A stretch of DNA of 64,000 nucleotides from a virus. Its lineage: Duplodnaviria > Caudoviricetes. The position numbers and the translations under genes were made by a program. The stretch's first letter is position 1; every line of letters starts with the position of its first letter. The stretch lies in IMG/VR virus record IMGVR_UViG_3300028591_000098, positions 1 through 64,000 of that record. The stretch is one strand, 5' to 3'. A model generated the notes under the pieces. The model saw only the letters and a list, made by a program, of their open reading frames with translations, made no database searches and was not told where the DNA came from. Below are positions 8,497-61,006 of this stretch, piece by piece.

Positions 8497-9000
8497 ATGA
8501 AATCTATTTATAATATAATTAATGAAGCTTCTAATGAAAACAACATTATTGAAGCTTTAAAAAATGCATTAAAAGAAGAGATTAATGCATGGTATGGATA
8601 TATTATTGTTAAGGAATGGTTAGCTTGTCCTGAACGTAATAATATTGTAGAATTTTATGAGAAGACCGCAAAAGACGAATTAGAAGATCATGCATACTGG
8701 TTAATGAAACGTATTAGTCAATTAGGTGGTTCAATAAAGGATATATCATTAACTCCAAATTCATTAGATTCTGCTAATCATAAATATTTAGCGCCAGTTT
8801 GGAATAAAGATAAGATTAATGTTAAAAAATCATTAGAATTGAATATACAAAATGAAGAAGGAGCTATTGAAACATATAAAGAATTAGTACAAATGACTGA
8901 AAGTGTAGATCCAACTTCTAATTCAAAACTTAAGGAAATACTTGCAGATGAAGAAGAACATTTACAAGAATTAAAAGACTATTTAGATGATATTAAATGA
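8497..9000 (+). CDS. Ferritin-like (DpsL/bacterioferritin-type) protein with capsid-targeting-like tag
   Basis: Di-iron ligand pattern EEINAWYGY, DELEDHA, EEGAIETY, DEEEH; starts MKSIYNIINE. Confidence 0.85.
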   Translation: MKSIYNIINEASNENNIIEALKNALKEEINAWYGYIIVKEWLACPERNNIVEFYEKTAKDELEDHAYWLMKRISQLGGSIKDISLTPNSLDSANHKYLAPVWNKDKINVKKSLELNIQNEEGAIETYKELVQMTESVDPTSNSKLKEILADEEEHLQELKDYLDDIK

Positions 9001-9617
9001 AACACTTAATAGAATATATTAACGAACAATTAAAACCGGATGTTCAAAAATGGTTGGCAAATGTTTATAAGACAATGCAATCATTAATTAAGGACAATAA
9101 AGTTCAACCTATAGATGTTGATCCAAAGAAATTAGCTAAACCAGAAAAGGGTGGATTTACTTTTGATGATTTTACAAATGATAAAACTGTTAAGACTATT
9201 ATAAATGATAAAGTTTTAGGTTTTACTGTTACTGCTCAAATGTTAAAAAATTCTAATAAGTATTTAGTTAACAAAAGTGGAGAAGAAGAAAAAGAACTAA
9301 AACCTGAATGTCTTCCATATTGGTATCAACAAGATAATAACATATACTTTATTGGTATTGTTATGTATGATAGTTCTGTAACATATATTGATGAGTTTGC
9401 CCATTTAGTAGATATAGAAACATCATTATGTGTAAGTGAATCCTTACCAGTATTGAAAGCCATGTTAAATGATTTTGCCCTTCATTATTTAAATAAAAAA
9501 GGAAACTATAAAGGATTAACGGCAAAACCAGAACACCCTAAAATGAGAGCAATATTAACTAAACTTGGATTTAGCCCAATGAAAGATAATAAAGATATTT
9601 TAATTTATAAATTATAA
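8997..9617 (+). CDS. Tagged protein, possible GNAT-like fold
   Basis: Starts MKHLIEYINE; FIGIVMY...AHLVDIE...KGLTA...LTKLGF. Confidence 0.5.
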   Translation: MKHLIEYINEQLKPDVQKWLANVYKTMQSLIKDNKVQPIDVDPKKLAKPEKGGFTFDDFTNDKTVKTIINDKVLGFTVTAQMLKNSNKYLVNKSGEEEKELKPECLPYWYQQDNNIYFIGIVMYDSSVTYIDEFAHLVDIETSLCVSESLPVLKAMLNDFALHYLNKKGNYKGLTAKPEHPKMRAILTKLGFSPMKDNKDILIYKL

Positions 9618-10279
9618 TGAAACCAATTAACACATATATTAATGAATCGATATTGATAAATCAAATAGATGAAGATTTGTCATTTTTATTGGATGATACT
9701 ATTGATGAAGGAAAAATATCAGATGGTATCAAAAAAGTTTGGAAATGGGTAAAGGGAAAATTTACAGGTAAAAAAGATAAAAGAAAAACAACCGATGTTT
9801 CTTCAGATTATACCCCTGAAACGGATGGAGAATTATCATATAAATTTTATAACTATGGACAAATTAAAGAAAAAATTTTAAGAAATAATAATTTGAATAG
9901 AGTTAATAGTTTTATTACAAAAGGATATGATAATAAAATTAGATTATTATGTGTTGAGAAAAAAGATTTAATAATTGCATGCGCAATATTTGTCAAACCA
10001 GAAAACTATACAAATCGTCCTAGCGAATATTCTAAGTATAATGACTATGGGCATATAATTAAAATTCAAATTGATGAAGACTTTACTAATGAAAATATAT
10101 TAAAAGGAATAGTAAATAAAATATATGATGAATTAGTTAGGAATTCAAACTGTAAGGGATTAACATTAAATTACGAAGAATATAAAATAAATAAAACAGA
10201 TTATGAAAAATATTTAGAAGAGAATTTTAATGTTGATACCATTAAAGATAAAAAAATAGCAGTATTTAATAACAAATAA
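9617..10279 (+). CDS. Tagged protein, possible GNAT-like fold
   Basis: Starts MKPINTYINE; IIACAIF...GHIIKIQID...KGLTL. Confidence 0.5.
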   Translation: MKPINTYINESILINQIDEDLSFLLDDTIDEGKISDGIKKVWKWVKGKFTGKKDKRKTTDVSSDYTPETDGELSYKFYNYGQIKEKILRNNNLNRVNSFITKGYDNKIRLLCVEKKDLIIACAIFVKPENYTNRPSEYSKYNDYGHIIKIQIDEDFTNENILKGIVNKIYDELVRNSNCKGLTLNYEEYKINKTDYEKYLEENFNVDTIKDKKIAVFNNK

Positions 10280-10614
10280 TGAAAGACCTATCAACATATA
10301 TATTAGAAGAACTTGACGATAATTTATTGTGGATGATTGACAAATGGTTTGAAATAAATAATGATCATCTACAAGAATTTATAGAACTTATTGCTAAATA
10401 TAATGATTATAAATTTAATAAAAATGAATTGACATTGGAATTAAATGCTTATGAAAATGATCCAATAAAATTACACATAAAAGAATTTATAAATTTTTTA
10501 GATAATGATATTAATCCTGTCGAAGACAAAGATTATATTCAAAAATTATTAGATATAATTAAATTGGTATGTAATAATAAATCAATAAAAAACAAATACA
10601 TTAAACACATTTAA
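10279..10614 (+). CDS. Tagged hypothetical protein
   Basis: Starts MKDLSTYILE; TAATG coupling. Confidence 0.65.
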   Translation: MKDLSTYILEELDDNLLWMIDKWFEINNDHLQEFIELIAKYNDYKFNKNELTLELNAYENDPIKLHIKEFINFLDNDINPVEDKDYIQKLLDIIKLVCNNKSIKNKYIKHI

Positions 10615-10620
10615 TTGTAT

Positions 10621-11181
10621 ATGAAAAACTTACAAGACATAATACAAGAAAAACTTCAAATTGGATCTAAATCTAAAATTAGTCAATATAAATATCATCC
10701 AAAAGATAAAGGTGAGTTAAAACAATTATTAAAACTATTATTAGATGAACGTGGTAAAGATGCAAATTTAAATGATATTGATACATCTAAAATAACAGAT
10801 ATGTCTAATTTATTTGAAAATTTAAATCCTCATAACATAGATATATCTAAATGGGATGTATCAAATGTTACAAATATGTTATGTATGTTTTACGGATGTA
10901 AAAATTTTAATTCAGATTTAAGTAAATGGAATGTATCTAATGTTGAAAATATGTATAAGATGTTTTATAAATGTCGTAATTTTAATAGTGATTTATCAAA
11001 ATGGGACGTATCTAATGTTTTTAATATGAAATATATGTTTCTTGCATGTAAAAACTTTAATTGTGATTTATCTAATTGGGACATATCTAATATTAGATAT
11101 ATGGATTATATGTTTGATATTACATCATTAGAAAAAAATCCTCCTAAATGGTATATTAAATGGCATAAGAATAATATATGA
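10621..11181 (+). CDS. DUF285/BspA-type repeat protein, paralogue 1
   Basis: ATG at 10621 gives MKNLQDIIQEKLQIGSK; repeats FNSDLSKWNVSNVxNMxxMF. Confidence 0.85.
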   Translation: MKNLQDIIQEKLQIGSKSKISQYKYHPKDKGELKQLLKLLLDERGKDANLNDIDTSKITDMSNLFENLNPHNIDISKWDVSNVTNMLCMFYGCKNFNSDLSKWNVSNVENMYKMFYKCRNFNSDLSKWDVSNVFNMKYMFLACKNFNCDLSNWDISNIRYMDYMFDITSLEKNPPKWYIKWHKNNI

Positions 11182-11222
11182 AAAACTTATAAAATATAAC
11201 AAAATATTAAATATATAACAAT

Positions 11223-11498
11223 ATGAAAAATATAATAAATTTTATTAAAGAGTCAGTATTCACTTATGATATTGATGAAATAGTTGATGCGATTTTAAAT
11301 GTAGCTTCAGATGAATTAGGAAATAAATTCGATAAATCATCACCAGAAGATATTTTAGATGCCGCATATGACGCAGGAGAATTTTCTGAATGTGGAGAGA
11401 TTGCAAGTATAGTTCAAGGTGATGAAGATGAAATTGCCGATTTCATTATGGATAATAGAAAAGAAATATTGAAAAAGATAAAAGATTCAAAGAAATAA
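11223..11498 (+). CDS. Tagged acidic hypothetical protein
   Basis: Starts MKNIINFIKE. Confidence 0.65.
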   Translation: MKNIINFIKESVFTYDIDEIVDAILNVASDELGNKFDKSSPEDILDAAYDAGEFSECGEIASIVQGDEDEIADFIMDNRKEILKKIKDSKK

Positions 11499-11526
11499 AA
11501 ATGAGGAGTTTAAGACTCCTCATTTT
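11498..11526. terminator. Bidirectional terminator
   Basis: aaaatgaggagt-ttaag-actcctcatttt between convergent genes. Confidence 0.75.
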
Positions 11527-12799
11527 CTGTTGTTTGTTTTATATTGTTTTGATAAATTGCATTTGATATATTTGGTCTTTCTTTATTCCAATTATTTAAT
11601 ATATTAATTGCTTGAGAAACTATAAATTTTGCTGTACCTACGGGGACATTTTGACCAATCTTAGCTAAATTACTTTCATCACCATATAATGTAAAATCAT
11701 AAGGCATACCCATAAATGAAAGATATTCTCGTATAGTATATATTCTATTCTCAGTTAGATGTAACATATTTGGCATAGATCTAAATTGTATAGAAGGCAT
11801 AAAATCTTTTACATATTGAATATCATCTCCGTAATAATTAAGACCTAATGATTTCTTATACTTAATATGTTCAAAATATTTTAGTGTACGTTCTTTATTC
11901 TCTATAGGATATTTTTCATCCTTCTTTACATATTCAATAAGCTCATCTATTAATGAATTACGATTTATATAATCCATAATTGATCCATTAATGAAATTTT
12001 TCCAATCATTTCCAAATTTATTATAAATAAAATCTAATGTATAATAATTGTACACTCCAGTCTTCACAGGTATCTCTTGAGTCAATCCTTTAGGTATTTT
12101 ATTTAAATAGTCTTTCAGTGACACGGAGGCCGCTTCAAATGACATCAACGGTGGATTCTCGATTTTATTGTCAGTTATATGTTTTATAAATATAACAAAT
12201 GTACGAGGACGTTTCTGACAGTTATGATGTAAAACAGTATCAGTCTTATAATAAAGAATTGAATATCCCTTATCTAACGCTAATTGATTAAACCATGCAC
12301 GCAATTCATCTCCTCTACTTCCCATTAAGGTAGGAGCATTTTCAAATATAAAAATTTTTGGCTTTATCATACTAAGTGTATAATTTGTCATCCATTTCAT
12401 ATTACAATTACGTGACTCTTTAGTTTCTTTACTTGCTTTTGTAACCATCGATATACCTGAACATACTGGTACACCTACAACTATATCAATATTATCATAA
12501 TCTGGTGTTTGTTCTTCATTATCTTTTGAAATAAATGGATTCATATAATTAACATCAATATCAAACATTCCATTATGTATAGTGTAATATGGAACTTCTC
12601 TATTATGTTTTTCAAGATATTTAATTAAGTTATATTCATTACCTACTCCGGCCATTTCATTAGTCTTTTTAGAATATGTAACATCACATAAACCATCAAA
12701 TGACATTATCCATTCGGCTGGATGTCCAATTGCTTCTTCTGCACCTAAATACATCCCGCCCGTAAGCGGTTGTATACATGCCCATTTTATATTATTCAT
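11510..12799 (-). CDS. C5-cytosine DNA methyltransferase-family protein (atypical motifs I and IV)
   Basis: PLTGG (I), GVPVCSG (IV), FENAP (VI), QKRPRTF (VIII), RIYTIREYLSFMGMP (IX), IGQNVP (X). Confidence 0.85.
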   Translation of the reverse strand: MNNIKWACIQPLTGGMYLGAEEAIGHPAEWIMSFDGLCDVTYSKKTNEMAGVGNEYNLIKYLEKHNREVPYYTIHNGMFDIDVNYMNPFISKDNEEQTPDYDNIDIVVGVPVCSGISMVTKASKETKESRNCNMKWMTNYTLSMIKPKIFIFENAPTLMGSRGDELRAWFNQLALDKGYSILYYKTDTVLHHNCQKRPRTFVIFIKHITDNKIENPPLMSFEAASVSLKDYLNKIPKGLTQEIPVKTGVYNYYTLDFIYNKFGNDWKNFINGSIMDYINRNSLIDELIEYVKKDEKYPIENKERTLKYFEHIKYKKSLGLNYYGDDIQYVKDFMPSIQFRSMPNMLHLTENRIYTIREYLSFMGMPYDFTLYGDESNLAKIGQNVPVGTAKFIVSQAINILNNWNKERPNISNAIYQNNIKQTTENEES

Positions 12800-14081
12800 A
12801 TTTCTTATTGTCTTCTATATATTTTTCAAACATTTGCTTAGATTCATCTAACATATAATTATTAAATTTATTATATATAGATTTACGTTGATGATATTTC
12901 ACTTTACAAAATAAATGATCATTACTAATTAATTGTTCCACTCTTTCTTTAAATTGTTCAGGATTATCAACATACATAAATTCTTTTAAAAAATCATCAT
13001 CTGTATATTGTTTCTTTGAATCATAAGGTGTAAATACAAAAGGAATTATATCAGCCAACATTAAATCAAAATAACGTGGACTTATAAAATCATCAAATGT
13101 AGAAGGATTTGCTATAATAAATGAAGTATAAGAATCTTTACATATCTCTTCAAACAATTTATTATATTCTATTTCTTTAAACTTATCTGCATTTTTAAAT
13201 TCATCTGAAAAATGTCCCTTTGCTTCAATAACTTTTATAGGACCATCAAGAATGTTATAAAATGCTAATGTATGTTTGACTCTAAAATCATCATGTTTAA
13301 TATATCCATGATATTCACTTTGATATTTACGATTTAAAGGATATTCTTTAAATTTATCTTCAAGATTACAATTAACACCTTGCCAATTATATACATTAAA
13401 CTTACACCAATATTTTGGTTTTGTTACTATATTAGGTGAACCAAATTTTAATTTTATTCTTTCATTATAATAGTGTTCATAATCATTACCACAATGAGCA
13501 ACAATTGTATTATCAAAACAATTATGTAATAAACCAGATTCTTGATATTCTAAATAAAGTTTTGCATCAGATGTTTCTTTATTATATTTATAAGGTTTTG
13601 GTTTTTGATCTTCAGATTTATAAAGACGTTTCTCTACCATAAGTGCAGGATTAATTGTCATAAAATCAGGATCATCTTGAATAGTATAATAATGACCATC
13701 CCCATGTGTTTTATACCATTCAACTAATCTATTACAAATGGAAAAATAAAAATCTCCTAATACACCACCAAAAAATACTAATACATGTTGTTTACAAAAT
13801 ATATCATTAATATTTAAATCATTAAAAAGATTAATTCTATCAATACCAAAAATTATTGAATCTTTATCAAAATATTCTTCATTAATTTTCTTTTCTTTTA
13901 TTGATGAACTAATTATATATACTTTATCATATCCAACATATTTTTCAAGATAATCTTTATATGTTTTCATGCCAGCATTCTTAATTCCCATTTTAGTAAA
14001 TGAAATAGGAGAAGTAATACCAATAATAGCAGCGATCTTTCCATGACCGCTGCCTTTTTCTAAATTATTTAATTGCTGCAT
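12792..14081 (-). CDS. DNA beta-glucosyltransferase-like GT-B enzyme
   Basis: C-terminal DDFISPRYFDLMLAD...YDSKK...YVDNPEQFKERVEQL resembles the T4 BGT C-terminus as I recall it; operon context. Confidence 0.6.
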   Translation of the reverse strand: MQQLNNLEKGSGHGKIAAIIGITSPISFTKMGIKNAGMKTYKDYLEKYVGYDKVYIISSSIKEKKINEEYFDKDSIIFGIDRINLFNDLNINDIFCKQHVLVFFGGVLGDFYFSICNRLVEWYKTHGDGHYYTIQDDPDFMTINPALMVEKRLYKSEDQKPKPYKYNKETSDAKLYLEYQESGLLHNCFDNTIVAHCGNDYEHYYNERIKLKFGSPNIVTKPKYWCKFNVYNWQGVNCNLEDKFKEYPLNRKYQSEYHGYIKHDDFRVKHTLAFYNILDGPIKVIEAKGHFSDEFKNADKFKEIEYNKLFEEICKDSYTSFIIANPSTFDDFISPRYFDLMLADIIPFVFTPYDSKKQYTDDDFLKEFMYVDNPEQFKERVEQLISNDHLFCKVKYHQRKSIYNKFNNYMLDESKQMFEKYIEDNKKYE

Positions 14082-14086
14082 ATTTA

Positions 14087-15355
14087 TTAATCTTTAAAAC
14101 AATCATCTATTAATTTATTTGCTATTGCTTTTGCATCACAATTTGCTTTAAATGCATTAAATATTCTATTGCGAAGTTCATCATATTTTTCAGGATTATT
14201 CATAAGTTCATCCATTTGTGATAAACATTCATCAATATTAGACAAATCCTTCTTAAGGAATATTCCCAATCCTAATTCCAATGCGGTTTTGCCTGTTGAT
14301 GTAGCAGTATTATCATACATATGACATGCATTTCCTGCATTCCAATCAAGCAATGGTATAGAACCCATTTCAATCATTTCAAAAATAGAATATTCAAAAT
14401 CATCCCCATAACAACCATCATTCTTAAGATTGAAGAAATCACATCCAAATGCTGATTTTGCAACTATCTGTAATCCTTCATCTCTCTTATATGCATCAAA
14501 TACATAACACCAACCTTTTTTACGTTCAGGTGTATCTAACATTGGATCATCTAAAGATATATTATTAGCAATTCTCCATTTCTTATCTGATGCCATTATG
14601 CATGCAGTTGAAGGAATACGATTACCATCCTTATCAAATGAATAAATCAAATCAGGAATTGTAGATACATTAATAGTTCTTTTAATACCACGCATTTCTA
14701 ATTCATAATCATGTGCATAAAAACTATCTCTACCTCTTAATAGACGTGTTGGATCCTTAAATCCAGAATGACGTCCAAGATATGTAATACGTCTTAATTT
14801 TTCTGTTGCAGGAATCCATTGTTCTTTAACTTTATCATCATAAACATGTGGTAATAACAAATGAACAAAACGTTTGTCAAACTCTTCTTGACCACATGCT
14901 AATGCAATTTTTTCTGCAACCCTTGCTTTAGGTGCAAATGTTATAATCTTATCAAATGCAAGCCAAAACTCTGAATTATGAAGTAATGGCCCATAATATG
15001 CAGCAAACCCACTTGGATTATGATCATTACATACAATTACTTTTCTAGTTGTAATTTTATTCATGAGCATATCCATCCATAAGTTACGATATTTCTCATC
15101 GGCTTTCTTTTCCATAATTGAATTGATTATAACCAAATCTGCATCATTTAAATGCTTAACTGTTTCATCGGAATAATCATATTCAACTGCTTCTGGAATA
15201 TCTTGTGTTCCATTCTTCATTTGTGCTTTTTCATGAGCTTTTACATAAATAATTTCCACATCATGTCCAGCCAATTTCAAACCCTTATTCAATTCAATTA
15301 CGTAACGAGTTACTCCTGAACCCTCAATACGTGCCATTAATTGTATTATTTTCAT
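14087..15355 (-). CDS. DNA alpha-glucosyltransferase-like GT-B enzyme
   Basis: N-terminus MKIIQLMARIEGSGVTRY...GHDVEIIY resembles T4 AGT; YLGRHSGFKDP; FEYSIFEMIEMGSIP. Confidence 0.75.
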   Translation of the reverse strand: MKIIQLMARIEGSGVTRYVIELNKGLKLAGHDVEIIYVKAHEKAQMKNGTQDIPEAVEYDYSDETVKHLNDADLVIINSIMEKKADEKYRNLWMDMLMNKITTRKVIVCNDHNPSGFAAYYGPLLHNSEFWLAFDKIITFAPKARVAEKIALACGQEEFDKRFVHLLLPHVYDDKVKEQWIPATEKLRRITYLGRHSGFKDPTRLLRGRDSFYAHDYELEMRGIKRTINVSTIPDLIYSFDKDGNRIPSTACIMASDKKWRIANNISLDDPMLDTPERKKGWCYVFDAYKRDEGLQIVAKSAFGCDFFNLKNDGCYGDDFEYSIFEMIEMGSIPLLDWNAGNACHMYDNTATSTGKTALELGLGIFLKKDLSNIDECLSQMDELMNNPEKYDELRNRIFNAFKANCDAKAIANKLIDDCFKD

Positions 15356-15383
15356 ACTTTATATAATTTGTTTAATTTAAATT

Positions 15384-15412
15384 AATATAGAAATTTAAAA
15401 TATTTTATTCAT
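15384..15412 (-). promoter_or_regulatory. Recurrent phage promoter motif, internal to modification cluster
   Basis: Minus strand ATGAAT-N17-TATATT with C before -10. Confidence 0.45.
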
Positions 15413-15980
15413 TTAATGCATCTTCCCAAAATTCTGAATATAAATGTATAGTATCTGCATTCCAATATATTTTGACATCATCAATTTTATAAAAAAGTTT
15501 TAATACTTTTAATATTTTATCAATAACTGTTTTATGCCATATCAAATCTGTATCAAATTCTATAACATCATTACTTCTCATATGTACAGTATATTCTAAA
15601 TTGTAGTGATCACCCGAAACTTTAATTAAAAACACATGAATATACATTGTACAAATAAATGCCGGTAAATCATATTCATTAACATCACCCATTATCAATA
15701 CTGCTTGTCTTGAATTAGGATTATCTATTAATCTTTTAATACATTTACTAAATTGATTATTTCTCTCTAATATTGGATCATAATTTTCCTCATACCATTG
15801 TGGGGTCATCCGTTCTAATGGTGGAATGCTTTCAAAAATCTTATCTTTATTTACTTCAAAAATAACATTACGTAATTCTACATATTTAGTACCATTAAAA
15901 CAATTATAACCGGTTTCTTTTATATTATTATTTTTTAATTCTTTCAATAATAAATTTTTAATATCTTCTGTTTTATACAT
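15405..15980 (-). CDS. Shortened thymidylate-synthase-fold protein (second gp42-like paralogue)
   Basis: NPNSRQAVL, FICTMY, MRSNDVIEFDTD, YWNADTIHLY; only 191 aa. Confidence 0.75.
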   Translation of the reverse strand: MYKTEDIKNLLLKELKNNNIKETGYNCFNGTKYVELRNVIFEVNKDKIFESIPPLERMTPQWYEENYDPILERNNQFSKCIKRLIDNPNSRQAVLIMGDVNEYDLPAFICTMYIHVFLIKVSGDHYNLEYTVHMRSNDVIEFDTDLIWHKTVIDKILKVLKLFYKIDDVKIYWNADTIHLYSEFWEDALNE

Positions 15981-15983
15981 TCA

Positions 15984-16754
15984 TTATTTTTTATTGTTTT
16001 TTAATGATTTGTTAAGAGAATTTAAGAATTCATAATGCCCATCAATATTTTGTTTAGTAATAGGATCATTCAATATATTAAAATGTCTTTCATAAATATG
16101 TAATGAACCAGCATTCCAATACATATCACCTGATACTATATGTTTATTCATTTTTTTCGATAAATAATCTGCTAATTCATTTTGAACATAATTCATCCAC
16201 ATAGCGTCGTTATTAAAACCAAATATTGCATCATTTGAGCGAAAATTAACTATACAATCTAATAATGTATTTTTTTCATCATATTCATTTAAGAAATACT
16301 GAACATTTTGACAACACATAAAATCATGCATTCCATTTTTATTATATTCTTGTTGCATGGAAGGTCGATTATAAATCATAATAGCTTCTCTTGTATGTGG
16401 ATCATCTATTAAATGTTGAGCACAATTTTCAAATTGAGAACCATTTTCTTTAGAATAAATACACCATCCATAATTAGAATTTATAAATCCATCTGGAGTT
16501 GCACAAGCTTTCCACATTTTAGGAGCACCTCCAGGAATATCGTTAACGTTTAATGATTGCGATTTATACCAATCTAATTCTTTATGATAATATTCAATAT
16601 TTGGTTCACGAATAATCCATGGTTTATCGACTTCAAAATGTGCATTTTGAATTTCTAATGTTTTTGATTGTTGAACATTATTTCCAATTATTCTAAATTC
16701 ATTTTTCTCATATTTATCGAGAAAAATATAAAAAATATCTTTTGTGATTAACAT
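15984..16754 (-). CDS. dCMP hydroxymethylase (T4 gp42-like)
   Basis: INSNYGW, DPHTREAIMIYNRPSMQ, DFMCC, FRSNDAIFGFNND (Asp at the dCMP-specificity position), WNAGSLHIYERHF. Confidence 0.85.
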   Translation of the reverse strand: MLITKDIFYIFLDKYEKNEFRIIGNNVQQSKTLEIQNAHFEVDKPWIIREPNIEYYHKELDWYKSQSLNVNDIPGGAPKMWKACATPDGFINSNYGWCIYSKENGSQFENCAQHLIDDPHTREAIMIYNRPSMQQEYNKNGMHDFMCCQNVQYFLNEYDEKNTLLDCIVNFRSNDAIFGFNNDAMWMNYVQNELADYLSKKMNKHIVSGDMYWNAGSLHIYERHFNILNDPITKQNIDGHYEFLNSLNKSLKNNKK

Positions 16755-17299: not shown

Positions 17300-17377
17300 A
17301 CATATTAAATACATTTATTTATGTTATTATTAAATATAGAAATAACTAATTATAATTTTTTTATATTTTTTAACAAT

Positions 17378-18994: not shown

Positions 18995-19009
18995 ATATAA
19001 TATATAAAT

Positions 19010-20326
19010 ATGGAATCAAATATAGATAAATTTAAACGTATAATAGATTTAAAATTAGAGATACTTAATAAATCTAAGGAATTAAAGAAAGATTCTTATC
19101 AATCTAAATATAGAAAATTAACTGGATTGTTAGTTAATGAAAATATATTTAATAATGATATATCAGATAATTTATTAAATTGGTTATTCTGGCATATTCC
19201 TGGAGGAAATAAAATGAATGACAATAATAAAGAATCGGCATCATTAAGATTATCTATAACTAAAGCATCTAATAATAATCCATTATATATAGATGATAGA
19301 AAATTTAATAAATATGATATTATTAGAGCAAAAACTCATACAAATGAAGAATTGACAGACGACAATAAATATCTTGATGTAAATAATGATGGTGTTATAA
19401 CAGAAGAAGATATTGAAATGTTAAGAAATGCTCTTTGGCAAGATTCAAAATATAAGAATATATCATTTAGACCTGGATTATCTAAAACAACTAATAAGAT
19501 TGAAGAATTTGTGTATATTGAATTAAAAACAACATCAACTGAATATACATTAATAATAAATGATGTTAAATTAGATAATTCTAAAATTTTATGTTTACCT
19601 GATGATGTATTATCTTATAAAGTAATATCAGGTAATTATATAGAAGAAGGTGAAATTAATGTTAATGAAATTGATGATAATGATAATAATATTATAGTTA
19701 TTGAAATAAAACAAGATATTGCTAGTGATACCAAAAAAATTACAGATGTTTTATTAAACTCAGGTGAAAAGGTATTACAAGAAGATATTACTATAACAAG
19801 AGTAGCAGGAGGTTTGTTCCAAAATAACGATACTATAATAAATTTAAATGGTCATAAAATAACATCAAATAGTAGTTCTAGTGCAACTATATTTGTTAGA
19901 GGTACTGCAAAATATACAATTGATGGAGAAGGAACTATTGAAGATTTATCTACACAAGGACAAGGTGTAATATGGACAACAACTAAAGATTCAAAAGTTA
20001 TAATAAATAATGGTGAATTTATTGCACATACCCCTGCAGGACAATGTATTTATTGTCAAATTGGTACTATAGAAATAAATGGTGGTGTATTTAAAGGTGA
20101 AGTGGCATCTACAACAAATGATCATAGATATTTATTAAACTGTCTTGATGCTAATTATAAAAATGGTACTGCAAAAATAATTGTTTCTGGTGGTACATTC
20201 TATGGATTTGATCCAGGTAATAATGCAGCAGAAGGTCCTAATACATCATTCTTAAAAGAAGGATATATATCACAAGAAATAGGAGAAGAAAATGGAATAA
20301 AAATATATCAAGTAATTAAAGAATAA
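19010..20326 (+). CDS. Putative virion protein with EF-hand/dockerin-like loop and C-terminal beta-helix-like region
   Basis: DVNNDGVITEEDI; INLNGHKIT, IINNGEF, INGGVF, VSGGTFYGFDP. Confidence 0.55.
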   Translation: MESNIDKFKRIIDLKLEILNKSKELKKDSYQSKYRKLTGLLVNENIFNNDISDNLLNWLFWHIPGGNKMNDNNKESASLRLSITKASNNNPLYIDDRKFNKYDIIRAKTHTNEELTDDNKYLDVNNDGVITEEDIEMLRNALWQDSKYKNISFRPGLSKTTNKIEEFVYIELKTTSTEYTLIINDVKLDNSKILCLPDDVLSYKVISGNYIEEGEINVNEIDDNDNNIIVIEIKQDIASDTKKITDVLLNSGEKVLQEDITITRVAGGLFQNNDTIINLNGHKITSNSSSSATIFVRGTAKYTIDGEGTIEDLSTQGQGVIWTTTKDSKVIINNGEFIAHTPAGQCIYCQIGTIEINGGVFKGEVASTTNDHRYLLNCLDANYKNGTAKIIVSGGTFYGFDPGNNAAEGPNTSFLKEGYISQEIGEENGIKIYQVIKE

Positions 20327-20517
20327 TGAAAACAATAAAAGAAATAATTAGCGAAGGTTCAAATAATGATAAAATCTTAGATGCATTTGAAGAAATTAAA
20401 GATGCTTTAGGTGCAGATGAATTTTTAGATGAATTGTATAGAGCAATGTCTGAAGATAATTTAAAAGATTATCTCGAATATATTGCAAAAAATCATGAAA
20501 TAAAAATTAACATTTAA
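20326..20517 (+). CDS. Tagged small protein
   Basis: Starts MKTIKEIISE. Confidence 0.65.
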   Translation: MKTIKEIISEGSNNDKILDAFEEIKDALGADEFLDELYRAMSEDNLKDYLEYIAKNHEIKINI

Positions 20518-21260
20518 TGAGAAATTTGAAAGACTTTATATTAGAATATAAAGAAAGACATAATAATTCTTTTGATTATGAAGGAATAAAAAATGTGATA
20601 CAAAATTGTAAACCTTCATTTTTTGGAAAAAATGTTTGTTTAGATATTTTGTGGAGGCCTGAGATAATATTTTCAAAGGAAAATGGATGGGAACAAAATA
20701 AAAAAACTAAATTATATAAATATAATGGAATAATTTTAAGTGAATCTCCAGTTATGTTTATTGATTTTTATGCAGAGAAAAAAATATTTAAAAAAGATAT
20801 TATTGAAGGTTATATAAGTTGGATATTACCAAATAAAATAAATAATGATGATACTAATTGTGATGAATTAGAAAAATTCTTAAAATCAAAAGCTAATGAT
20901 AAAAATAAAGAAAGAATAAAATTCACATCATATGAAGAACTTGAAAAATATCTTAAAGAAATAGAAGACATTATTAATAAACATAATACAAAATGTGATA
21001 ATAATGAACCAACTTATTTATTTTTTGATAAAAGCGAAGCAACATTAAATGCTCAATTTAAAAAACATCAATATGAATTAATAAGTTGTGATGAAAAAAT
21101 ATCAAGTTTAAATAAAGAATTAGAAGATATCAAAAAGGCGGCAGAAGGTTCGGATGTAGATTTAACACCCCTTATAGATATAACCATTGAAAAAATTGAA
21201 TATTTTAAAAACTCAAAGAAAATTTTAGAAGATGAAAAACTTACAAGATATAATACATGA
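20517..21260 (+). CDS. Tagged hypothetical protein
   Basis: Starts MRNLKDFILE. Confidence 0.65.
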   Translation: MRNLKDFILEYKERHNNSFDYEGIKNVIQNCKPSFFGKNVCLDILWRPEIIFSKENGWEQNKKTKLYKYNGIILSESPVMFIDFYAEKKIFKKDIIEGYISWILPNKINNDDTNCDELEKFLKSKANDKNKERIKFTSYEELEKYLKEIEDIINKHNTKCDNNEPTYLFFDKSEATLNAQFKKHQYELISCDEKISSLNKELEDIKKAAEGSDVDLTPLIDITIEKIEYFKNSKKILEDEKLTRYNT

Positions 21261-21690
21261 GAAACTTCAGATTGGTAGTAAAACAAAAGTTAGTTCATAT
21301 AAATATCATCCTAAAAATAGAAAAGAATTAATTGAAGTAATTAATCCAATTTTAAAAGAAAATGGATTTGAATGTGATTTAAATAATATAGATACATCAC
21401 AAATTACGGATATGCATGATTTATTTATAAATTGTCAATTTAATGGTAATATATCTGATTGGGATGTTTCTAATGTAAAGGATATGTCTTGGATGTTTCA
21501 TGGTGCGGGATTTAATGGAGATATATCTAATTGGGATGTTAGTAATGTTGAAGATATGTCAGAAATGTTTGAATTTAGTGAATTTAATCAAAATATAGAT
21601 AATTGGAAAGTATCAAAAGAAACATTAATGAGAGATATGTTTAGTGATTGTCCTTTAGAAAAAAATCCCCCTAAATGGTATAAAAACTAA
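21232..21690 (+). CDS. DUF285/BspA-type repeat protein, paralogue 2
   Basis: MKNLQDIIHEKLQIGSK; FNGNISDWDVSNVKDMSWMF repeats; ends PLEKNPPKWY. Confidence 0.85.
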   Translation: MKNLQDIIHEKLQIGSKTKVSSYKYHPKNRKELIEVINPILKENGFECDLNNIDTSQITDMHDLFINCQFNGNISDWDVSNVKDMSWMFHGAGFNGDISNWDVSNVEDMSEMFEFSEFNQNIDNWKVSKETLMRDMFSDCPLEKNPPKWYKN

Positions 21691-30716: not shown

Positions 30717-31070
30717 TTAGTCATCTATTACATCCCCAAAATATGATATAAATGCAGCAACATATTCTTTACCATCTAAAACAAATGATATTTCCCAATC
30801 ATTACTAGTTTCTTTAGATGTCACTTTAATAGTTTCATCCCAATTATCATTTAAAAATTTCGCAATTTCTTCACATGCTTTTTTTGGATCTGAATCATCG
30901 AAATTTTCAAACCAACCATTATCCAAAAGATTTACACAATCTTCTGGAGTAACTTTACCTGGTTTTCCATCTGGCATTTCACCAAGACATGCCCATTTAG
31001 CAAAATCACCAATAGTTGTTGTATCTATATGTTTCTTACCTTCTGTAATAAATTCTTTTAAATTTTTCAT
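30717..31070 (-). CDS. Tagged acidic hypothetical protein
   Basis: Starts MKNLKEFITE. Confidence 0.65.
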   Translation of the reverse strand: MKNLKEFITEGKKHIDTTTIGDFAKWACLGEMPDGKPGKVTPEDCVNLLDNGWFENFDDSDPKKACEEIAKFLNDNWDETIKVTSKETSNDWEISFVLDGKEYVAAFISYFGDVIDD

Positions 31071-38637: not shown

Positions 38638-39387
38638 ATGAAAGATTTATATACATACCTATTAGAAGAAAAAATCTTAGATAATAAATCCATATATCTT
38701 TGGAATTATGTTCAAATGAATGAATGGAATGAACAACAAATACTTAAAAAACTTGAAGATACATTAATTGATTTTGGAATGAAATGTACTTTTGTTATGG
38801 TAGATGTTGCTAAAAATAAAAATTATCAAGAAGAGCATGATTATCCTATAAAACTTAGAGATGCAGCAATTAAAGCATCAAAAGAGTATAAATCATTTGA
38901 TAAGAAAAATGATAAAGAAAAGGAAAAATGGATTCTTAACAAAATTGAAGAAATTAAAAAGAATGCAGAATATTTAACTAAAGATGATGGACGTTTAAAA
39001 CATTTAGTTAAAGATACTAATAAGGTTCCATTGATAGTTCCCCCAACAAAAATAGATTTAACAACAATTGGATTAAATGATTTCAATATACATATTAAAT
39101 CAGATATTCATAATCAAATGAGCGAAAGGGTTATTAAATGGAAATCTGATAATGTTAAAGAATTATCTAAAGAAATATTTGATGCATTTCCAAAGAATGA
39201 TGAATTTAAAGAACATTTTAAAGGATTCGCAATATATACCAAAAATCAAGTAATAAACAAATTTGATTCAATATATATAACATTTATGTTTGATGATGAA
39301 TTTGAAAACACATTAGAAAAAAATATTAAAAGATTCTCAGATAAAATGCGTGATTTATATGCATCAGGAGAATATATGGGAGACTAA
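38638..39387 (+). CDS. Tagged hypothetical protein
   Basis: Starts MKDLYTYLLE. Confidence 0.65.
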   Translation: MKDLYTYLLEEKILDNKSIYLWNYVQMNEWNEQQILKKLEDTLIDFGMKCTFVMVDVAKNKNYQEEHDYPIKLRDAAIKASKEYKSFDKKNDKEKEKWILNKIEEIKKNAEYLTKDDGRLKHLVKDTNKVPLIVPPTKIDLTTIGLNDFNIHIKSDIHNQMSERVIKWKSDNVKELSKEIFDAFPKNDEFKEHFKGFAIYTKNQVINKFDSIYITFMFDDEFENTLEKNIKRFSDKMRDLYASGEYMGD

Positions 39388-39390
39388 ATT

Positions 39391-39774
39391 ATGAAAGTTA
39401 TAAAAAATAATTTTATTCCTTGGGGAGATGCTGATTATATTAATGTATTTGGTGTAATATTTACAAAAAAAGATAATGACAAATTATCTAAAAAGGTTCT
39501 TAATCATGAATCTATACATACATTACAAATGAAATATTTGTTATATATTCCATTTTATATTTTATATGTAATAGAATGGTTGTTAAAAATACCAGTATCT
39601 ATGTTTATAAATCAATCAAAATATGATCTTTTAGATTATGCATATAGATCAATATCTTTTGAACAAATGGCATATTATAATGATAAAAATTATGATTATT
39701 TAGAAACTGCAAATCCTTATGAATGGGTAAAATATATATTTAAAATGTATGAAATCAATAGAAGAAATAGCTAG
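39391..39774 (+). CDS. HExxH-containing membrane-associated protein
   Basis: LNHESIHTLQ, hydrophobic stretch, AYRSISFEQMAY. Confidence 0.65.
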   Translation: MKVIKNNFIPWGDADYINVFGVIFTKKDNDKLSKKVLNHESIHTLQMKYLLYIPFYILYVIEWLLKIPVSMFINQSKYDLLDYAYRSISFEQMAYYNDKNYDYLETANPYEWVKYIFKMYEINRRNS

Positions 39775-40036
39775 TGAAAATTCGCAAGTAAATGAATCAT
39801 TAGTATATGATCAAATAATACAAAAACTTAATGAAGCAAAAGAAGCTGGTACACCTATAGATGAAGGTTTGCTTGGTGCTGTTGGTGGTGCAATTTTGGG
39901 TACTGCATTTGGACCTAAATTAGGAGGAGCAATATGTAAAGCTCTTGGTGTAGATGTTAAGGGTGCATTTGGCTCATTAATAACATCTCGTCTTGTAATG
40001 GGTGCGATAGGTACAACAATGGGATGGAGAATGTAA
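39749..40036 (+). CDS. Tagged glycine-zipper protein
   Basis: MKSIEEIASE...IDE then GLLGAVGGAILGTAFGPKLGGAICKALG. Confidence 0.7.
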   Translation: MKSIEEIASENSQVNESLVYDQIIQKLNEAKEAGTPIDEGLLGAVGGAILGTAFGPKLGGAICKALGVDVKGAFGSLITSRLVMGAIGTTMGWRM

Positions 40037-40040: not shown

Positions 40041-40718
40041 ATGAAAAACTTACAAGATATAATACAAGAAAAACTTCAAATAGGAAGTAAAACAAAAGTT
40101 AGTTCACATAAATATCAACCAAAAAATAGAGATGAATTAAAAGAATTAGTAGATCATCTTATTGAAGAAAGAGGATTATTTGCTAATTTAAATGACATTG
40201 ATACTTCTAAAATAGATGATATGTCTAAATTATTTTTTGAATCAAACTTTAATGGTGACATATCTAAATGGGATGTAAGTAATGTTGAAAATATGTTTCG
40301 TATTTTTAGCCGTTCTAATTTTAATGGCGATATATCTAATTGGGATGTAAGTAAAGTAGAAAATATGGAATGTATGTTCTCAGCATGTGAATTTAATAAA
40401 GATATATCGAAGTGGAACGTAAGTAATGTCAAAAATATGGGTGGTATGTTTGCTAATGGTTTTTTTGATAAAGATATATCAAAATGGGATGTTAGTAATG
40501 TAACTAATATGGACGAAATGTTTGAAAATTCTGTATTTAAAGGTGATATATCAAAATGGGACGTACGTAATGTTGAAGATATGTATTGTATGTTTTATAA
40601 TTCCAAATTTAATGGTGATATATCTAAATGGAATGTTAAAAAATGTAAAAAAATGAGTTTTATGTTTGATGAATCTCCTTTAAAAAATCATCCACCTAAA
40701 TGGTATAGTGAGAAATAA
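40041..40718 (+). CDS. DUF285/BspA-type repeat protein, paralogue 3
   Basis: MKNLQDIIQEKLQIGSK; FNGDISKWDVSNV repeats. Confidence 0.85.
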   Translation: MKNLQDIIQEKLQIGSKTKVSSHKYQPKNRDELKELVDHLIEERGLFANLNDIDTSKIDDMSKLFFESNFNGDISKWDVSNVENMFRIFSRSNFNGDISNWDVSKVENMECMFSACEFNKDISKWNVSNVKNMGGMFANGFFDKDISKWDVSNVTNMDEMFENSVFKGDISKWDVRNVEDMYCMFYNSKFNGDISKWNVKKCKKMSFMFDESPLKNHPPKWYSEK

Positions 40719-40722: not shown

Positions 40723-41268
40723 ATGAAAAACTTACAAGACATAATACAGGAGAAACTCCAAATTGGATCTAAATCTAAAATTAGTAGTTATAAGTATCAC
40801 CCAAAAGATAGAGATGAATTGATAAAAATAATCAAAACATTATTAGATGAACGCGGAAAAGATGCAAATTTAAACGATATTGATACATCTAAAATAACTG
40901 ATATGTCTTATTTATTTAAATGGTTTGATCCTCATAATATAGATATATCTAAATGGGATTTATCCAATGTTACTGATATACATGGTATGTTTTCTGGATG
41001 TAATAAATTTAATTGTGATTTGTCTAATTGGAATGTATCTAATGTTAAAAATATGGGTGTTATGTTTAATGGTTGCGAAAAATTTAATTCGGATTTAAGC
41101 GAATGGGACATATCTAATGTTAAAAATATGTATGGTATGTTTTATGATTGTAAAAATTTTAATTCAGATTTAAATAATTGGGATGTATCTAATGTTGAAA
41201 ATACAAGATTTATGTTTATTGGCAGTCCTTTACAAAAAACTCCCCCAAAATGGTATTATAAATCATAA
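40723..41268 (+). CDS. DUF285/BspA-type repeat protein, paralogue 4
   Basis: ATG 40723 gives MKNLQDIIQEKLQIGSK. Confidence 0.85.
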   Translation: MKNLQDIIQEKLQIGSKSKISSYKYHPKDRDELIKIIKTLLDERGKDANLNDIDTSKITDMSYLFKWFDPHNIDISKWDLSNVTDIHGMFSGCNKFNCDLSNWNVSNVKNMGVMFNGCEKFNSDLSEWDISNVKNMYGMFYDCKNFNSDLNNWDVSNVENTRFMFIGSPLQKTPPKWYYKS

Positions 41269-41294: not shown

Positions 41295-41759
41295 ATGAAA
41301 AACTTACAAGACATAATACAAGAGAAACTTCAGATTGGATCTAAATCTAAAATTAGTCAATATAAATATCATCCTAAAAATTGGAATGAATTAAAAGTAT
41401 TATTAAAACGATTATTAAGTGAACGTGGTAAAGATGCTGATTTAAATGATATTGATATATCTAAAATAACTAATATGGCAAGGTTATTTATTGGTTTAGA
41501 TCCTCATAATATAGATATATCTAAATGGAACGTATCTAATGTAACAAATATGGGGGACATGTTTGATGGATGTAAAAACTTTGATTCAGACTTAAGTGAA
41601 TGGGATGTATCTAATGTTAAAGATATGGATGGTATGTTTTATTTATGTAAAAATTTTAATTCAGATTTAAGTGAATGGGATGTATCTAAAGTAAAAAATA
41701 TGAGATTCATGTTTAATGGTAGTCGACTAGAAAAAAATCCACCGAAATGGTATAAATAA
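41295..41759 (+). CDS. DUF285/BspA-type repeat protein, paralogue 5
   Basis: MKNLQDIIQEKLQIGSK; ends LEKNPPKWYK. Confidence 0.85.
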   Translation: MKNLQDIIQEKLQIGSKSKISQYKYHPKNWNELKVLLKRLLSERGKDADLNDIDISKITNMARLFIGLDPHNIDISKWNVSNVTNMGDMFDGCKNFDSDLSEWDVSNVKDMDGMFYLCKNFNSDLSEWDVSKVKNMRFMFNGSRLEKNPPKWYK

Positions 41760-54908: not shown

Positions 54909-54941
54909 AATTAAATTATATTAACTGAATGAAACTAATTA

Positions 54942-55109
54942 TTATTTCTTTTTAGCCCAATCACATCTTAAAAATTGATTACATTTATTTTGTCCAGATT
55001 CTATTTTCTTTCCTTCATGCCAATAACAAGTAGGATTTTCAATCTTATGATATATTTCTCTACCCCAGAAGCAAACATCACAAGTACCAGGCTCTTTATA
55101 CTTCTTCAT
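54942..55109 (-). CDS. Small Cys-rich protein (not in ORF track)
   Basis: MKKYKEPGTCDVCFWG...CYWH...KCNQFLRC, 55 aa, fills the gap after the RNA ligase. Confidence 0.5.
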   Translation of the reverse strand: MKKYKEPGTCDVCFWGREIYHKIENPTCYWHEGKKIESGQNKCNQFLRCDWAKKK

Positions 55110-55779
55110 AATATTTAATTTTCATCAATTCTGCTTTCTTCCAATTTTTTGTCCAATGTTCGTCAGTGGTAACATGATTAGGTCGTACCCACTTACAAAC
55201 ATAATTTGGAAAATATTTATCTTCAAAAGCTTTAGTTACTCTTATAACTACACCTTCTCGTTGTGGACCAAATAAAGATGGTTCACTAGTAAATTTTTCA
55301 ACAAGATTTTTAAGTTGTTCTTCTGACTCTATCTTTCCACTCCAAAGTTCTGGTACAGTTGGTACATTAAGAATCTCGGCAAATTCTTTTATATAATCCC
55401 AACTCATCCACCAATTAATATCTGATTCATATCCGGCAAACATAAACCAATATGCAGGCAACTTATCATAATGAATAGAATGTTCACCATACAAGTTTTC
55501 CCCAAATATAATCTCTTCTTCACCTATAAATTTTTTTATTCTCCAATATAAACCATCAGAAGGATCCCATAAATTACGAGACCATGGAGAACGTGTAGGT
55601 GCCCCATGTGAACGTGCATAAACATCTTGTGAAGTAAATGCACTATTTTCACCATCTAACTTTTCTGTTATGACAATTTCTTCGCCTTTAAAATAGTTAA
55701 ACCAATTACCCTGAAGCTTCTTATCATCTTTGGTAGCTCCAGGTGAATATGGTAAATGATATGTTCTTGGGTATTTCAT
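55096..55779 (-). CDS. ATP-dependent RNA ligase-family protein
   Basis: KYPRTYHLPYSPG, motif I TEKLDGEN, FGENLY, REGVVIR, KWVR. Confidence 0.85.
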   Translation of the reverse strand: MKYPRTYHLPYSPGATKDDKKLQGNWFNYFKGEEIVITEKLDGENSAFTSQDVYARSHGAPTRSPWSRNLWDPSDGLYWRIKKFIGEEEIIFGENLYGEHSIHYDKLPAYWFMFAGYESDINWWMSWDYIKEFAEILNVPTVPELWSGKIESEEQLKNLVEKFTSEPSLFGPQREGVVIRVTKAFEDKYFPNYVCKWVRPNHVTTDEHWTKNWKKAELMKIKYYEEV

Positions 55780-56909: not shown

Positions 56910-56978
56910 ATTAATAAAAAATATCTATACTATAAACTTCATATTTATAATATAGACATTTTTATATGTTATTTAAAA

Positions 56979-58643: not shown

Positions 58644-59075
58644 TTAATTTTCACACAAGTCTAAACTTATCAATTTAACATTTTTTATAGTATATATTGG
58701 GTTGCCATTTTCATCTATTTTTTGATTACCTTCTTCATCTAAAACTGGTTCTCTATCACCTAACATACGTGGATTCAATTTAAATTCGTAACCTTTATCC
58801 ATAAGTTCTTTAACTACTTTACCTTTAGGAGTATCTAATAATTCAATTTTACCATATACTTGATTATTTTCAATCCAAATATTTTCCACCTTCCCAGCCG
58901 CATTAATTAAATTATTACTTAAAAAATTTTCATAATCTGGATGAAGTTCACATATTTTATTACCTTCTTTATTAAATTTTTCTATAGCTTTTTTCATCAT
59001 ATTAGAATCATAAATTCTTCCATTATGATTAGGATGATTAAGCTCTCCCATAATACATCTTAAATCTAATTCCAT
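58644..59075 (-). CDS. T4 gp21-like prohead protease homologue, catalytic Ser motif absent
   Basis: NHNGRIY, ICELHP, VYGKIELLDTPKG, then NPRMLG where the family has SSRGxG, KLISLD. Confidence 0.75.
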   Translation of the reverse strand: MELDLRCIMGELNHPNHNGRIYDSNMMKKAIEKFNKEGNKICELHPDYENFLSNNLINAAGKVENIWIENNQVYGKIELLDTPKGKVVKELMDKGYEFKLNPRMLGDREPVLDEEGNQKIDENGNPIYTIKNVKLISLDLCEN

Positions 59076-59105
59076 AATTATTTTAAATCTTTTAATAACA
59101 TTTAT

Positions 59106-59435
59106 CTAATTACATATTAAGTTATATAAATAATCTTGTATAGGTCCTTGGAAAATATCAAAATTATTATCCTTTAAGAACTTTTCAAACTTATCTTTAA
59201 AAATTCTTGGATCCTCATGAGTATTTTTGTATTCTATTACCTTTGGATCATTTTCATCTAAACAATTATAATCCTCTATACAAGCATATTTGCCAATATG
59301 AAGCATATTAAAGTTAACTGTTTCACCTAAATGATTTTCATATGATCTTGGTTCTACTTTTGTTACAATAGCTTCACCTACACTATTATCAACATAATAC
59401 TCAAAAAATATTCTATCACCTGCTTTGTAATTCAT
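59106..59435 (-). CDS. Hypothetical protein
   Basis: 109-aa ORF. Confidence 0.55.
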   Translation of the reverse strand: MNYKAGDRIFFEYYVDNSVGEAIVTKVEPRSYENHLGETVNFNMLHIGKYACIEDYNCLDENDPKVIEYKNTHEDPRIFKDKFEKFLKDNNFDIFQGPIQDYLYNLICN

Positions 59436-60178
59436 ATTTACTCAATTTTTTTATTTCTTTTTGACCAATTTTGGTTATTTTTCTAATTGTATTTGGGTTA
59501 TAAAAATAAAAAAAGTTATTCTTAAGTGAATGTATCATCGCATCATTCCACATACACTCATAAGAATTCAAATATATTTTGTTAGCTAATTTTAAAGCTT
59601 CATGTTGTTCTATATTCATAATTTATCCCGGTAATCTTACATCTTTATTATATTCCCAATCATAGTCATCATCTGGAAATATTTCTTTGGTATATGCACC
59701 AAATGCACAACCACTATTTTCATTACAAGGAAATCCTATAATTTCTGTACCTGCATTACATTTAACTTCATTATCATCAATAGATAAATTATAATGACAT
59801 TCTTTACATTTGATAAATCTATTCATATATTATATAACCTTTCATAATTTAATATTTTCATGATTTCATATTGTTATTTCTTCACATATCGGAAAACATG
59901 ATTTAATATCTTCTATTGTGAAATCTTTTATATTCATATAAAAGAAATGTTCATAATCATTTTCAACCATCAATGGATAAATTACATTATTAACATATTG
60001 TTCTTGTTTGCTATTCATTAATTGATAATTTATAATATAAATATATCCTCTATAAAAGTTATTTTTATATTTATGCCTCTTTTGTAAAACTACAAATTTA
60101 AGATTTATACTATCAAATAGATTGGTTAATTTATTTATAAGTTTTGTGTTTGATAACTTCATAATTATAACATATTTT

Positions 60179-61006
60179 TTATAATTTTGATAGTAATGTT
60201 ATAATTGTAATTGATTTTGGAACAAAATTTGATATTACTCCATTAATACATTGACTGATTGTTTCTCCAGAAGATATTGTGTCATCTAAAATCAATATAT
60301 CTTTACCATCAATTTTTGATCTTATATCTTCATCATACTCAGTACTTATATATTTTATATATTTTAAATATTTTTTATTCATCATTTTTACCTCAAATGA
60401 TGTCCCTTTCATTCTTCTAAAACTACGATGAATTTCGGCAATCACTTTATTAAATTCATTTGGGTAATCTTTTTGTATTTGTTCTTTATCAATTAAATCA
60501 TCATCAATAATTTCTTCAATAGATAATTTAACAAAAAATTCATTTAATATGTCTTTAGACTTTATTTGATCCGAAATGATTTTCATGAATTTTTCATTAA
60601 TATCACTTGTTGATGGTGTTACGATGATAGTATCATATTGTGAATTTATCTTTTTACAAATACTTAAAAATCTTTTAATATACTTATAAATTTCTTCATT
60701 CGTTATATTAAATTTCCATCCATATTTATTCTTTAATGCATATATAAAAGGATTTCCATCTCTTTGTTGATTATCTATATCATATAACTTTGTTCTCTTA
60801 AATATTGATATGACATCATATTCTTTATATTTTGAATATACCGGATTATTTACTAATGAAAAGTCAATACCATGATTATGTGTATCTGTCAATGATACTG
60901 TTTTAGATATTGGATCAATATTTAAGCCCTCAACAATATATGAATCAAGTTCATTTATGTCAGTACTATTAAATGATTCTTTTATTATTTGTGAAAGTGA
61001 TTTCAT
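60179..61006 (-). CDS. Phosphoribosyltransferase-fold protein with capsid-targeting-like tag
   Basis: PRPP loop ILILDDTISSGETI; IIVTPSTS; starts MKSLSQIIKE. Confidence 0.75.
   Translation of the reverse strand: MKSLSQIIKESFNSTDINELDSYIVEGLNIDPISKTVSLTDTHNHGIDFSLVNNPVYSKYKEYDVISIFKRTKLYDIDNQQRDGNPFIYALKNKYGWKFNITNEEIYKYIKRFLSICKKINSQYDTIIVTPSTSDINEKFMKIISDQIKSKDILNEFFVKLSIEEIIDDDLIDKEQIQKDYPNEFNKVIAEIHRSFRRMKGTSFEVKMMNKKYLKYIKYISTEYDEDIRSKIDGKDILILDDTISSGETISQCINGVISNFVPKSITIITLLSKL

Follow-up and report, generated by a model that had tools for sequence, protein, structure and literature searches.

The DNA analysed here, referred to as the window, comprises the first 64 kb (64,000 nucleotides) of a 163,395-bp viral contig (IMG/VR record IMGVR_UViG_3300028591_000098, G000 in this work), which has a G+C content of 25% and is about 64% complete by the CheckV estimate. 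The genes are tightly packed along the window, and 18 of them start with a common ten-residue leader, or tag, which was searched for at protein N-termini as M-[KR]-x-[LI]-x-x-[YFI]-[ILA]-x-E. By this definition Glu is fixed at position 10, position 4 is Leu or Ile and position 7 is Ile, Tyr or Phe. An earlier reading of the window from its letters (the sequence-only reading) had listed these 18 N-termini and likened them to the capsid targeting sequence (CTS) of the phage T4 internal proteins; all 18 read as claimed at their coordinates.

Tagged genes of the window and their products

The tagged genes, together with one gene carrying a degenerate tag, are given below. The orthologues mentioned belong to G001 and G007, two related viral genomes described in the next section.

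8497..9000, plus strand: 167 aa; tag, short variable linker and ferritin-like four-helix bundle (Pfam Ferritin, E 6e-18, from residue 18)
8997..9617, plus strand: tagged, 206 aa, no family; G007 orthologue tagged
9617..10279, plus strand: tagged, 220 aa, no family; a GNAT-like fold is a weak lead from a protein-atlas look-up
10279..10614, plus strand: tagged, 111 aa, no family; G007 orthologue tagged
10621..11181, plus strand: tagged DUF285 repeat protein, 186 aa, E 6e-47; the ATG lies two codons inside the longest open reading frame (ORF)
11223..11498, plus strand: tagged, 91 aa, no family
20326..20517, plus strand: tagged, 63 aa, no family
20517..21260, plus strand: tagged (M-R start), 247 aa; G007 orthologue untagged
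21232..21690, plus strand: tagged DUF285 repeat protein, 152 aa
21760..22098, plus strand: tagged, 112 aa; G007 orthologue tagged, 74% identity
22098..22301, plus strand: degenerate tag with Leu8 and Asp10; canonical tag on the G007 orthologue
30717..31070, minus strand: tagged, 117 aa; G007 orthologue tagged, 80% identity
38231..38635, plus strand: tagged, 134 aa, no family; first gene of island 3
38638..39387, plus strand: tagged, 249 aa, no family
39749..40036, plus strand: tagged, 95 aa; G001 orthologue with a shifted tag variant
40041..40718, plus strand: tagged DUF285 repeat protein, 225 aa, E 2e-57
40723..41268, plus strand: tagged DUF285 paralogue, 181 aa; the start codon is five codons into the longest ORF
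41295..41759, plus strand: tagged DUF285 paralogue, 154 aa
60179..61006, minus strand: tagged, 275 aa; phosphoribosyltransferase (PRTase)-like C-terminal motif (Pfam Pribosyltran, E 1e-5, just under the cut-off)

In the whole contig the motif stands at the start of 35 of the 246 ORFs, i.e., on about one gene in seven. When the 35 protein bodies beyond residue 10 were compared, they fell into 24 BLAST clusters, made up of one DUF285 family of 12 members (five of them inside the window) and 23 singletons. Thus the same leader precedes unrelated proteins, and the earlier claim that the downstream domains differ was upheld. The sequence-only reading had also seen no tag on recognisable metabolic genes. 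This statement was wrong, since the tag is present on the ferritin-like protein (8497), on the PRTase-like protein (60179-61006, minus strand) and, outside the window, on a NUDIX hydrolase at 92.6 kb. Two of these, the ferritin-like and the NUDIX protein, have the tag and a short linker in front of a Pfam domain that starts at residue 18-19. Protein-atlas look-ups for two tagged proteins without family yielded weak leads only, among them the GNAT-like fold of 9617.

The tagged proteins are 63-275 aa long, hydrophilic and mostly acidic, and among the 85 tagged proteins of three genomes none is longer than 301 aa, compared with 14-22% of the other ORFs. The structure model of the ferritin-like protein is a four-helix bundle with an overall predicted local distance difference test (pLDDT) score of 90; confidence is lowest for residues 1-10 (pLDDT 63), which prolong helix 1 at its N-terminus.

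Enrichment, conservation and portability of the leader

The motif proved to be far more frequent than expected by chance when compared with shuffled DNA and with the starts of other genes. A degenerate DNA pattern for the full motif found 18 sites in the window, exactly those claimed and all at ORF starts, whereas dinucleotide-preserving shuffles of the window gave a mean of 0.51 sites and a maximum of 2. The number expected in the contig was 0.016 from the overall amino-acid composition and about 1.0 from the column-wise composition of N-termini. Within protein interiors the motif without its Met was seen 3 times against 3.06 expected, and it followed none of the 980 internal Met residues. 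In addition, a leave-one-out weight matrix was scored on the tagged starts, the other starts and the internal Met positions: 33 of the 35 tagged starts scored 7.7-24.7, while other starts reached at most 5.8 and internal Met positions at most 3.2. The weakest tag (137433, minus strand) scored 4.2 and overlaps the top of the background, the overall split being largely bimodal. This score also sorted the variants that the sequence-only reading had added to its list: 36587 and 52271 (minus strand) belong to the background and 6742 (minus strand) is merely a weak near-miss (5.8), while 22098 stands as a degenerate tag.

Metagenomes contain at least 120 close homologues of the ferritin-like protein, in some cases on contigs of 100-440 kb, and 77 of these 120 match the strict motif, most of the others being near variants. 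Among the 54 distinct N-termini of this family the least variable positions are 1, 2, 8 and 10, followed by 4 and 9; position 7 is more variable, yet is Ile, Phe or Tyr in 43 of the 54, and positions 3, 5 and 6 are free. Beyond the tag, the family has an indel-rich linker and then a body that is 62-96% identical. The codons of the tags in the contig vary synonymously (AAA or AAG for Lys, six Leu/Ile codons at position 4, ATA or ATT at position 8, GAA or GAG at position 10). As judged from these alignments, selection acts at the level of the protein and not of the DNA.

The shared start could instead be a by-product of the duplication or recombination of a 5' cassette, or an aid to translation initiation in a host that does not use Shine-Dalgarno pairing, and have no role in the protein. 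The A/T-rich regions upstream of the tagged genes showed no obvious Shine-Dalgarno sequences. The low G+C content fits such an origin, as do the AAA Lys codon at position 2, which is frequent across all genes, and the starts of the 12 DUF285 copies, which are near-identical through paralogy. Against it, the upstream DNA is not common to the tagged genes and many of them overlap the preceding stop codon, which makes a mobile 5' cassette or a signal at the nucleotide level unlikely. When a common promoter was sought upstream of the tagged genes, the enriched words were only the coding ends of preceding DUF285 genes. Moreover, codons vary synonymously while Ile8 and Glu10 are fixed, the remaining 211 ORFs are without the motif, and the motif is kept in orthologues that are only 45-84% identical. 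We therefore regard this explanation as extremely improbable.

Relatives of the contig were found through terminase and ferritin-like family searches of viral contigs. G001 (168 kb) has a terminase 64% identical to that of the contig and 19 tagged ORFs out of 219. G007 (376 kb, 98% complete) has a portal 75% and a terminase 68% identical, shares 91 genes with the contig at a median identity of 58% and has 31 tagged ORFs out of 640. In G006, G008 and G009 a DNA pattern stricter than the protein motif was used; it gave 73 matches against 1 in the control for G008 (410 kb, 97% complete), and 19 and 31 matches for G006 and G009, respectively, with none in either control.

Between the contig and G007 there are 12 orthologous pairs with at least one tagged member, and in seven of them the strict motif is present on both sides; in several others the partner has a near variant. 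The protein encoded at 20517 is tagged here and its G007 orthologue is not, which points to gain or loss of the tag. The tag appears from these comparisons to be portable between proteins. The islands of tagged genes are operon-like, and their content changes between relatives while the tag persists. Island 3 (38.2-41.8 kb) is located between the conserved anchor genes 36587 and 41849, and its genes have no homologues in G007, where the equivalent interval holds different tagged genes. This turnover is similar to that of the hyperplastic ip loci of the T-even phages. The second anchor gene (41849-43150, plus strand) encodes a 433-aa protein with no family match and with 16 [IL]-x-E motifs (3.7 per 100 aa, the genome mean being 1.5). 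The density of [IL]-x-E was considered as a detector of scaffold genes and was not decisive.

Head genes and the case for packaging

The portal of the contig is homologous to T4 gp20 (E 4e-28) and its terminase is of the gp17 type, about 27-30% identical to the terminases of cultured T4-type phages; the group consists of T4-related giant phages of the gut or rumen. Judged by these genes, the lineage of this uncultivated giant phage is T4-type. Megablast of 8-22 kb of the window against cultured phages gave no match. PHROGs searches with 20 large ORFs found no capsid gene and named only the portal, the terminase, a helicase, a dehydrogenase and a collagen-like tail fibre; a baseplate hub protein was named separately by Pfam and PHROGs. 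At 22704-25760 (plus strand) a 1018-aa protein is encoded, whose residues ~570-880 match many contigs of human-gut and rumen phages (phrog_35892, phrog_18805). One gene of the protease family was found in the window:

58644..59075, minus strand: 143 aa, short gp21-type prohead protease paralogue (Pfam Peptidase_S77, 35.2 bits with a cut-off of 27; phrog_207, E 2.5e-20)

When aligned with the proteases of T4, P-HM1, a Flavobacterium phage and PA5oct, this protein keeps the context of the catalytic His (GEL-x-HP) with a one-residue deletion. Giant phages have diverged protease paralogues (PMC5694885), and Serratia phage BF has a comparable short copy. The gene is in frame with an upstream 109-aa ORF (59106-59435), a single TAG and a few codons lying between the two. 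A fusion by read-through is conceivable; reading the TAG as sense made the Pfam match neither longer nor better. It is located amid RNA-repair genes: RNA ligase and RtcB genes (55096-55779 and 61116-62447, minus strand) flank both the protease paralogue and the tagged PRTase-like gene and are likely to form an RNA or tRNA repair module.

Intact head genes were found in the relatives. G007 and G008 each have one S77 domain, in ORFs of 542 and 565 aa, respectively, with the His and Ser motifs intact and with a long acidic, repeat-rich tail after the protease domain, which looks like a fused scaffold. In the G007 fusion (212537-214165) a 12-residue unit, W-V-V-E-E-F-A-P-E-V-Q-N, is repeated in tandem in at least four exact copies besides near-identical ones, and each unit contains V-x-E sites, a possible point of self-cleavage. 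The next gene in G007 encodes a gp23-like capsid protein (E 4e-8 to P-HM1 gp23), followed by two more ORFs of 1028 and 194 aa, which gene order and N-termini suggest to be the sheath and the tube. Directly upstream of its protease, G008 has 14 tagged genes in one block. Since both relatives have an intact protease and G007 a capsid gene, the missing third or so of the contig's genome very probably carries the real ones.

The T4 internal proteins IPII and IPIII have a CTS, and IPI a related leader, which is removed by the protease gp21 (Mullaney and Black 1996, as reviewed in PMC9026906 and PMC3012670). Mutations in the IPIII tag affect targeting mainly at residues 4 and 7 and processing at residues 8 and 10, and Asp10 blocks processing while targeting is kept (PMC9026906). 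The positions conserved here coincide with these residues, so that the likeness to T4 goes further than the sequence-only reading could have known. With regard to targeting, position 4 is Leu or Ile and position 7 is Ile, Tyr or Phe in 35 of 35 tags, as the search motif requires; among orthologues collected without use of the motif, most keep a hydrophobic residue at both positions. With regard to processing, position 8 is Ile or Leu in 34 of the 35 tags of the contig, and Glu10 is present in 41 of the 54 distinct orthologue N-termini.

We consider it fairly likely that the leader is a T4-type CTS that has been greatly expanded, and by analogy with T4 we infer that its bearers are docked, cleaved, packaged and ejected and act as effectors. 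The interpretation of the leader as a capsid tag is partly supported: it stands in its T4 likeness, its portability, its conservation and its setting among T4-type head genes; the part concerning metabolic genes does not. Folded as a short amphipathic helix whose residues 4, 7 and 8 are hydrophobic, the leader would dock a newly made protein onto the prohead scaffolding core, which would probably be built by the fused protease-scaffold protein of ~550 residues. After closure of the shell, a serine protease of the gp21 family would cut after Glu10, at a site consisting of I-x-E and then a small residue, or Lys in the DUF285 family. The mature protein would be freed in the head, remain with the DNA and enter the host at infection.

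Several observations weigh against this interpretation. The S77-like protein of the window has L-N-P-R-M in place of the Ser motif G-V/I-S-S-R-G; it would be a non-catalytic paralogue and is unlikely to be the maturation protease. No other S77-like frame was found in the contig, where the Pfam Gp23 search also gave no match and no capsid or scaffold gene was recognisable; a Gp23 match and a second S77 domain were sought in the relatives G001-G005 as well, and neither was found. As the contig lacks an intact S77 domain, capsid and scaffold, the argument leans on relatives, and these, the only genomes with an intact S77, are at a median identity of 58%. In the G007 capsid protein, the residue aligned with the T4 gp23 cleavage site is not Glu, the only candidate I-x-E sites being upstream. 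Several tagged proteins resemble ordinary cytoplasmic enzymes, and the mature proteins are mostly acidic, whereas the T4 internal proteins are basic. Finally, 30-70 cargo species per phage is far beyond the documented cases.

The leader could alternatively be a handle for another phage enzyme or chaperone, such as a leader-guided RimK-like ATP-grasp ligase in a graspetide-like modification, and not a capsid address. A RimK-type ATP-grasp gene (17321-18994, plus strand, 557 aa) is indeed located one gene upstream of island 2 (20.3-22.3 kb) and is among the best conserved genes, its orthologue in G007, likewise next to tagged genes, being 88% identical and that in G001 73%. It was the only candidate for such an enzyme that was found. 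However, the bearers of the leader are folded domains of 63-275 aa and not short precursor peptides, and they are spread over five or more islands, most of which are distant from the ATP-grasp gene. Linkage cannot be demonstrated from three genomes of a single lineage, the neighbourhoods of the islands showed no radical-SAM gene, and the conserved positions are those of the T4 tag and the protease motif. A role as such a handle is, in our opinion, very unlikely.

It could also be that prohead targeting and cleavage are real, and that most of the bearers are assembly or core parts, or are degraded or expelled, rather than injected. Gene position offers a point in favour of this. The gene right after the portal here has a tag variant that is two residues longer, and its 73%-identical orthologue in G001 is canonical. 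In the cultured Chryseobacterium phage MA9V-2, tag-type starts are present on two head-module genes (162897 and 166687), and a small tagged gene lies between the annotated "capsid assembly protein" gene, which is probably the portal, and a 1207-aa protease fusion. Tag-type genes sit in the place of prohead-core genes, which also favours the CTS reading: in the contig and in G001 it is the gene following the portal, and in MA9V-2 the gene between the probable portal and the protease, where T4 has genes 67 and 68. The T4 core proteins gp67, gp68 and gp22 are substrates of the protease and are mostly lost (PMC5694885). On the other side, the cargo turns over fast between relatives, unlike essential assembly parts; it includes enzyme folds and a 12-member binder family; and the T4 proteins with such a ten-residue tag are retained and ejected. 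We consider this alternative unlikely.

Under a CTS-type reading of the leader, its presence on about one gene in seven implies that the phage probably packs an unusually large and changeable cargo, and its occurrence on at least 24 unrelated proteins, together with the turnover of the islands, suggests a variable arsenal. This arsenal would comprise DUF285 repeat binders, ferritin-like, NUDIX and PRTase-like proteins and many proteins without family. We propose only tentatively, as a possibility, that the virions of this group are multi-protein delivery vehicles, in which an ancient T4-type address loads 30-70 proteins, a rapidly changing set with enzymes and an expanded family of repeat binders, which are injected to disarm or reprogramme the host before phage genes are expressed.

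Comparison with known systems

The principle is long established for T4; the novelty lies in its scale, in cargo of the enzyme type and in the fusion of protease and scaffold. Full-text literature searches for expansions of this kind in huge phages, of the gut, the rumen or elsewhere, found no paper that describes them. If the interpretation is true, the tag reveals, with nothing but the sequence, the proteins that uncultivated giant phages carry in the particle, and thereby lists directly the candidates for first-strike anti-defence and takeover functions. It would also imply an address code preserved between T4 and very distant relatives, increase the count of cargo species known per phage capsid by an order of magnitude, and make a natural, portable tag available for delivering proteins with Bacteroidota phages. 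MA9V-2, a cultured jumbo phage of a Bacteroidota host, would be tractable for a study of the tag.

A looser pattern, with position 4 free, matched three genes of the T4 record NC_000866, namely ipII, ipIII and ORF 61.1. The leader of ORF 61.1 (18966-19130, 54 aa) thus matches the ipII/ipIII tag pattern; we know of no description of 61.1 as a head protein. Nine cultured phages of the T4 superfamily besides T4 had 0-4 pattern matches each, which makes the expansion particular to this group. Another resemblance to T4 concerns the DNA itself. A cluster at 11510-16754 (minus strand) has C5-cytosine-methylase-like, T4 alpha-glucosyltransferase-like (Pfam AGT) and thymidylate-synthase-like genes, which suggests hypermodified, possibly glucosylated hydroxymethyl, pyrimidines in the DNA. 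In T4, where the DNA is modified in such a way, injected IPI counters type IV restriction.

The closest known system is the T4 CTS. Both have a ten-residue M-K leader with hydrophobic or aromatic residues at positions 4 and 7, Ile8 and Glu10, borne by otherwise unrelated small proteins encoded in variable loci, and both are accompanied by a gp20-type portal and a gp17-type terminase, with a gp21-type protease and a gp23-type capsid protein in the relatives. The T-even internal proteins are described as diverse anti-restriction proteins with only the tag in common (PMC3012670). The two differ in scale (two internal protein genes and one further ORF, i.e., 2-3, in T4, compared with 35 in the partial genome studied here and 30-73 in relatives), in position 4, which is Tyr in T4 and Leu or Ile here, and in the cargo, which here is mostly acidic with enzyme folds and a DUF285 family. 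Moreover, the protease of the relatives is fused to a long scaffold-like tail, and the present system is known from sequence alone. The large phages phiKZ, 201phi2-1 and SPN3US (Thomas et al.; Ali et al. 2017, PMC5694885) also have many internal head proteins that are cut after Glu by a gp21-related protease, as well as diverged protease paralogues. However, their propeptides are mostly longer than 100 residues, the cleavage motif is A/S/G-x-E, about eight processed proteins are known per phage, and these have no common ten-residue start. In phage P1, the N-terminal packaging signal of DarB (PMC9024508) similarly causes its protein, or a reporter, to be packaged in the capsid for delivery, but the Dar proteins have no consensus and no protease-linked motif, and the cargo consists of a few very large proteins.

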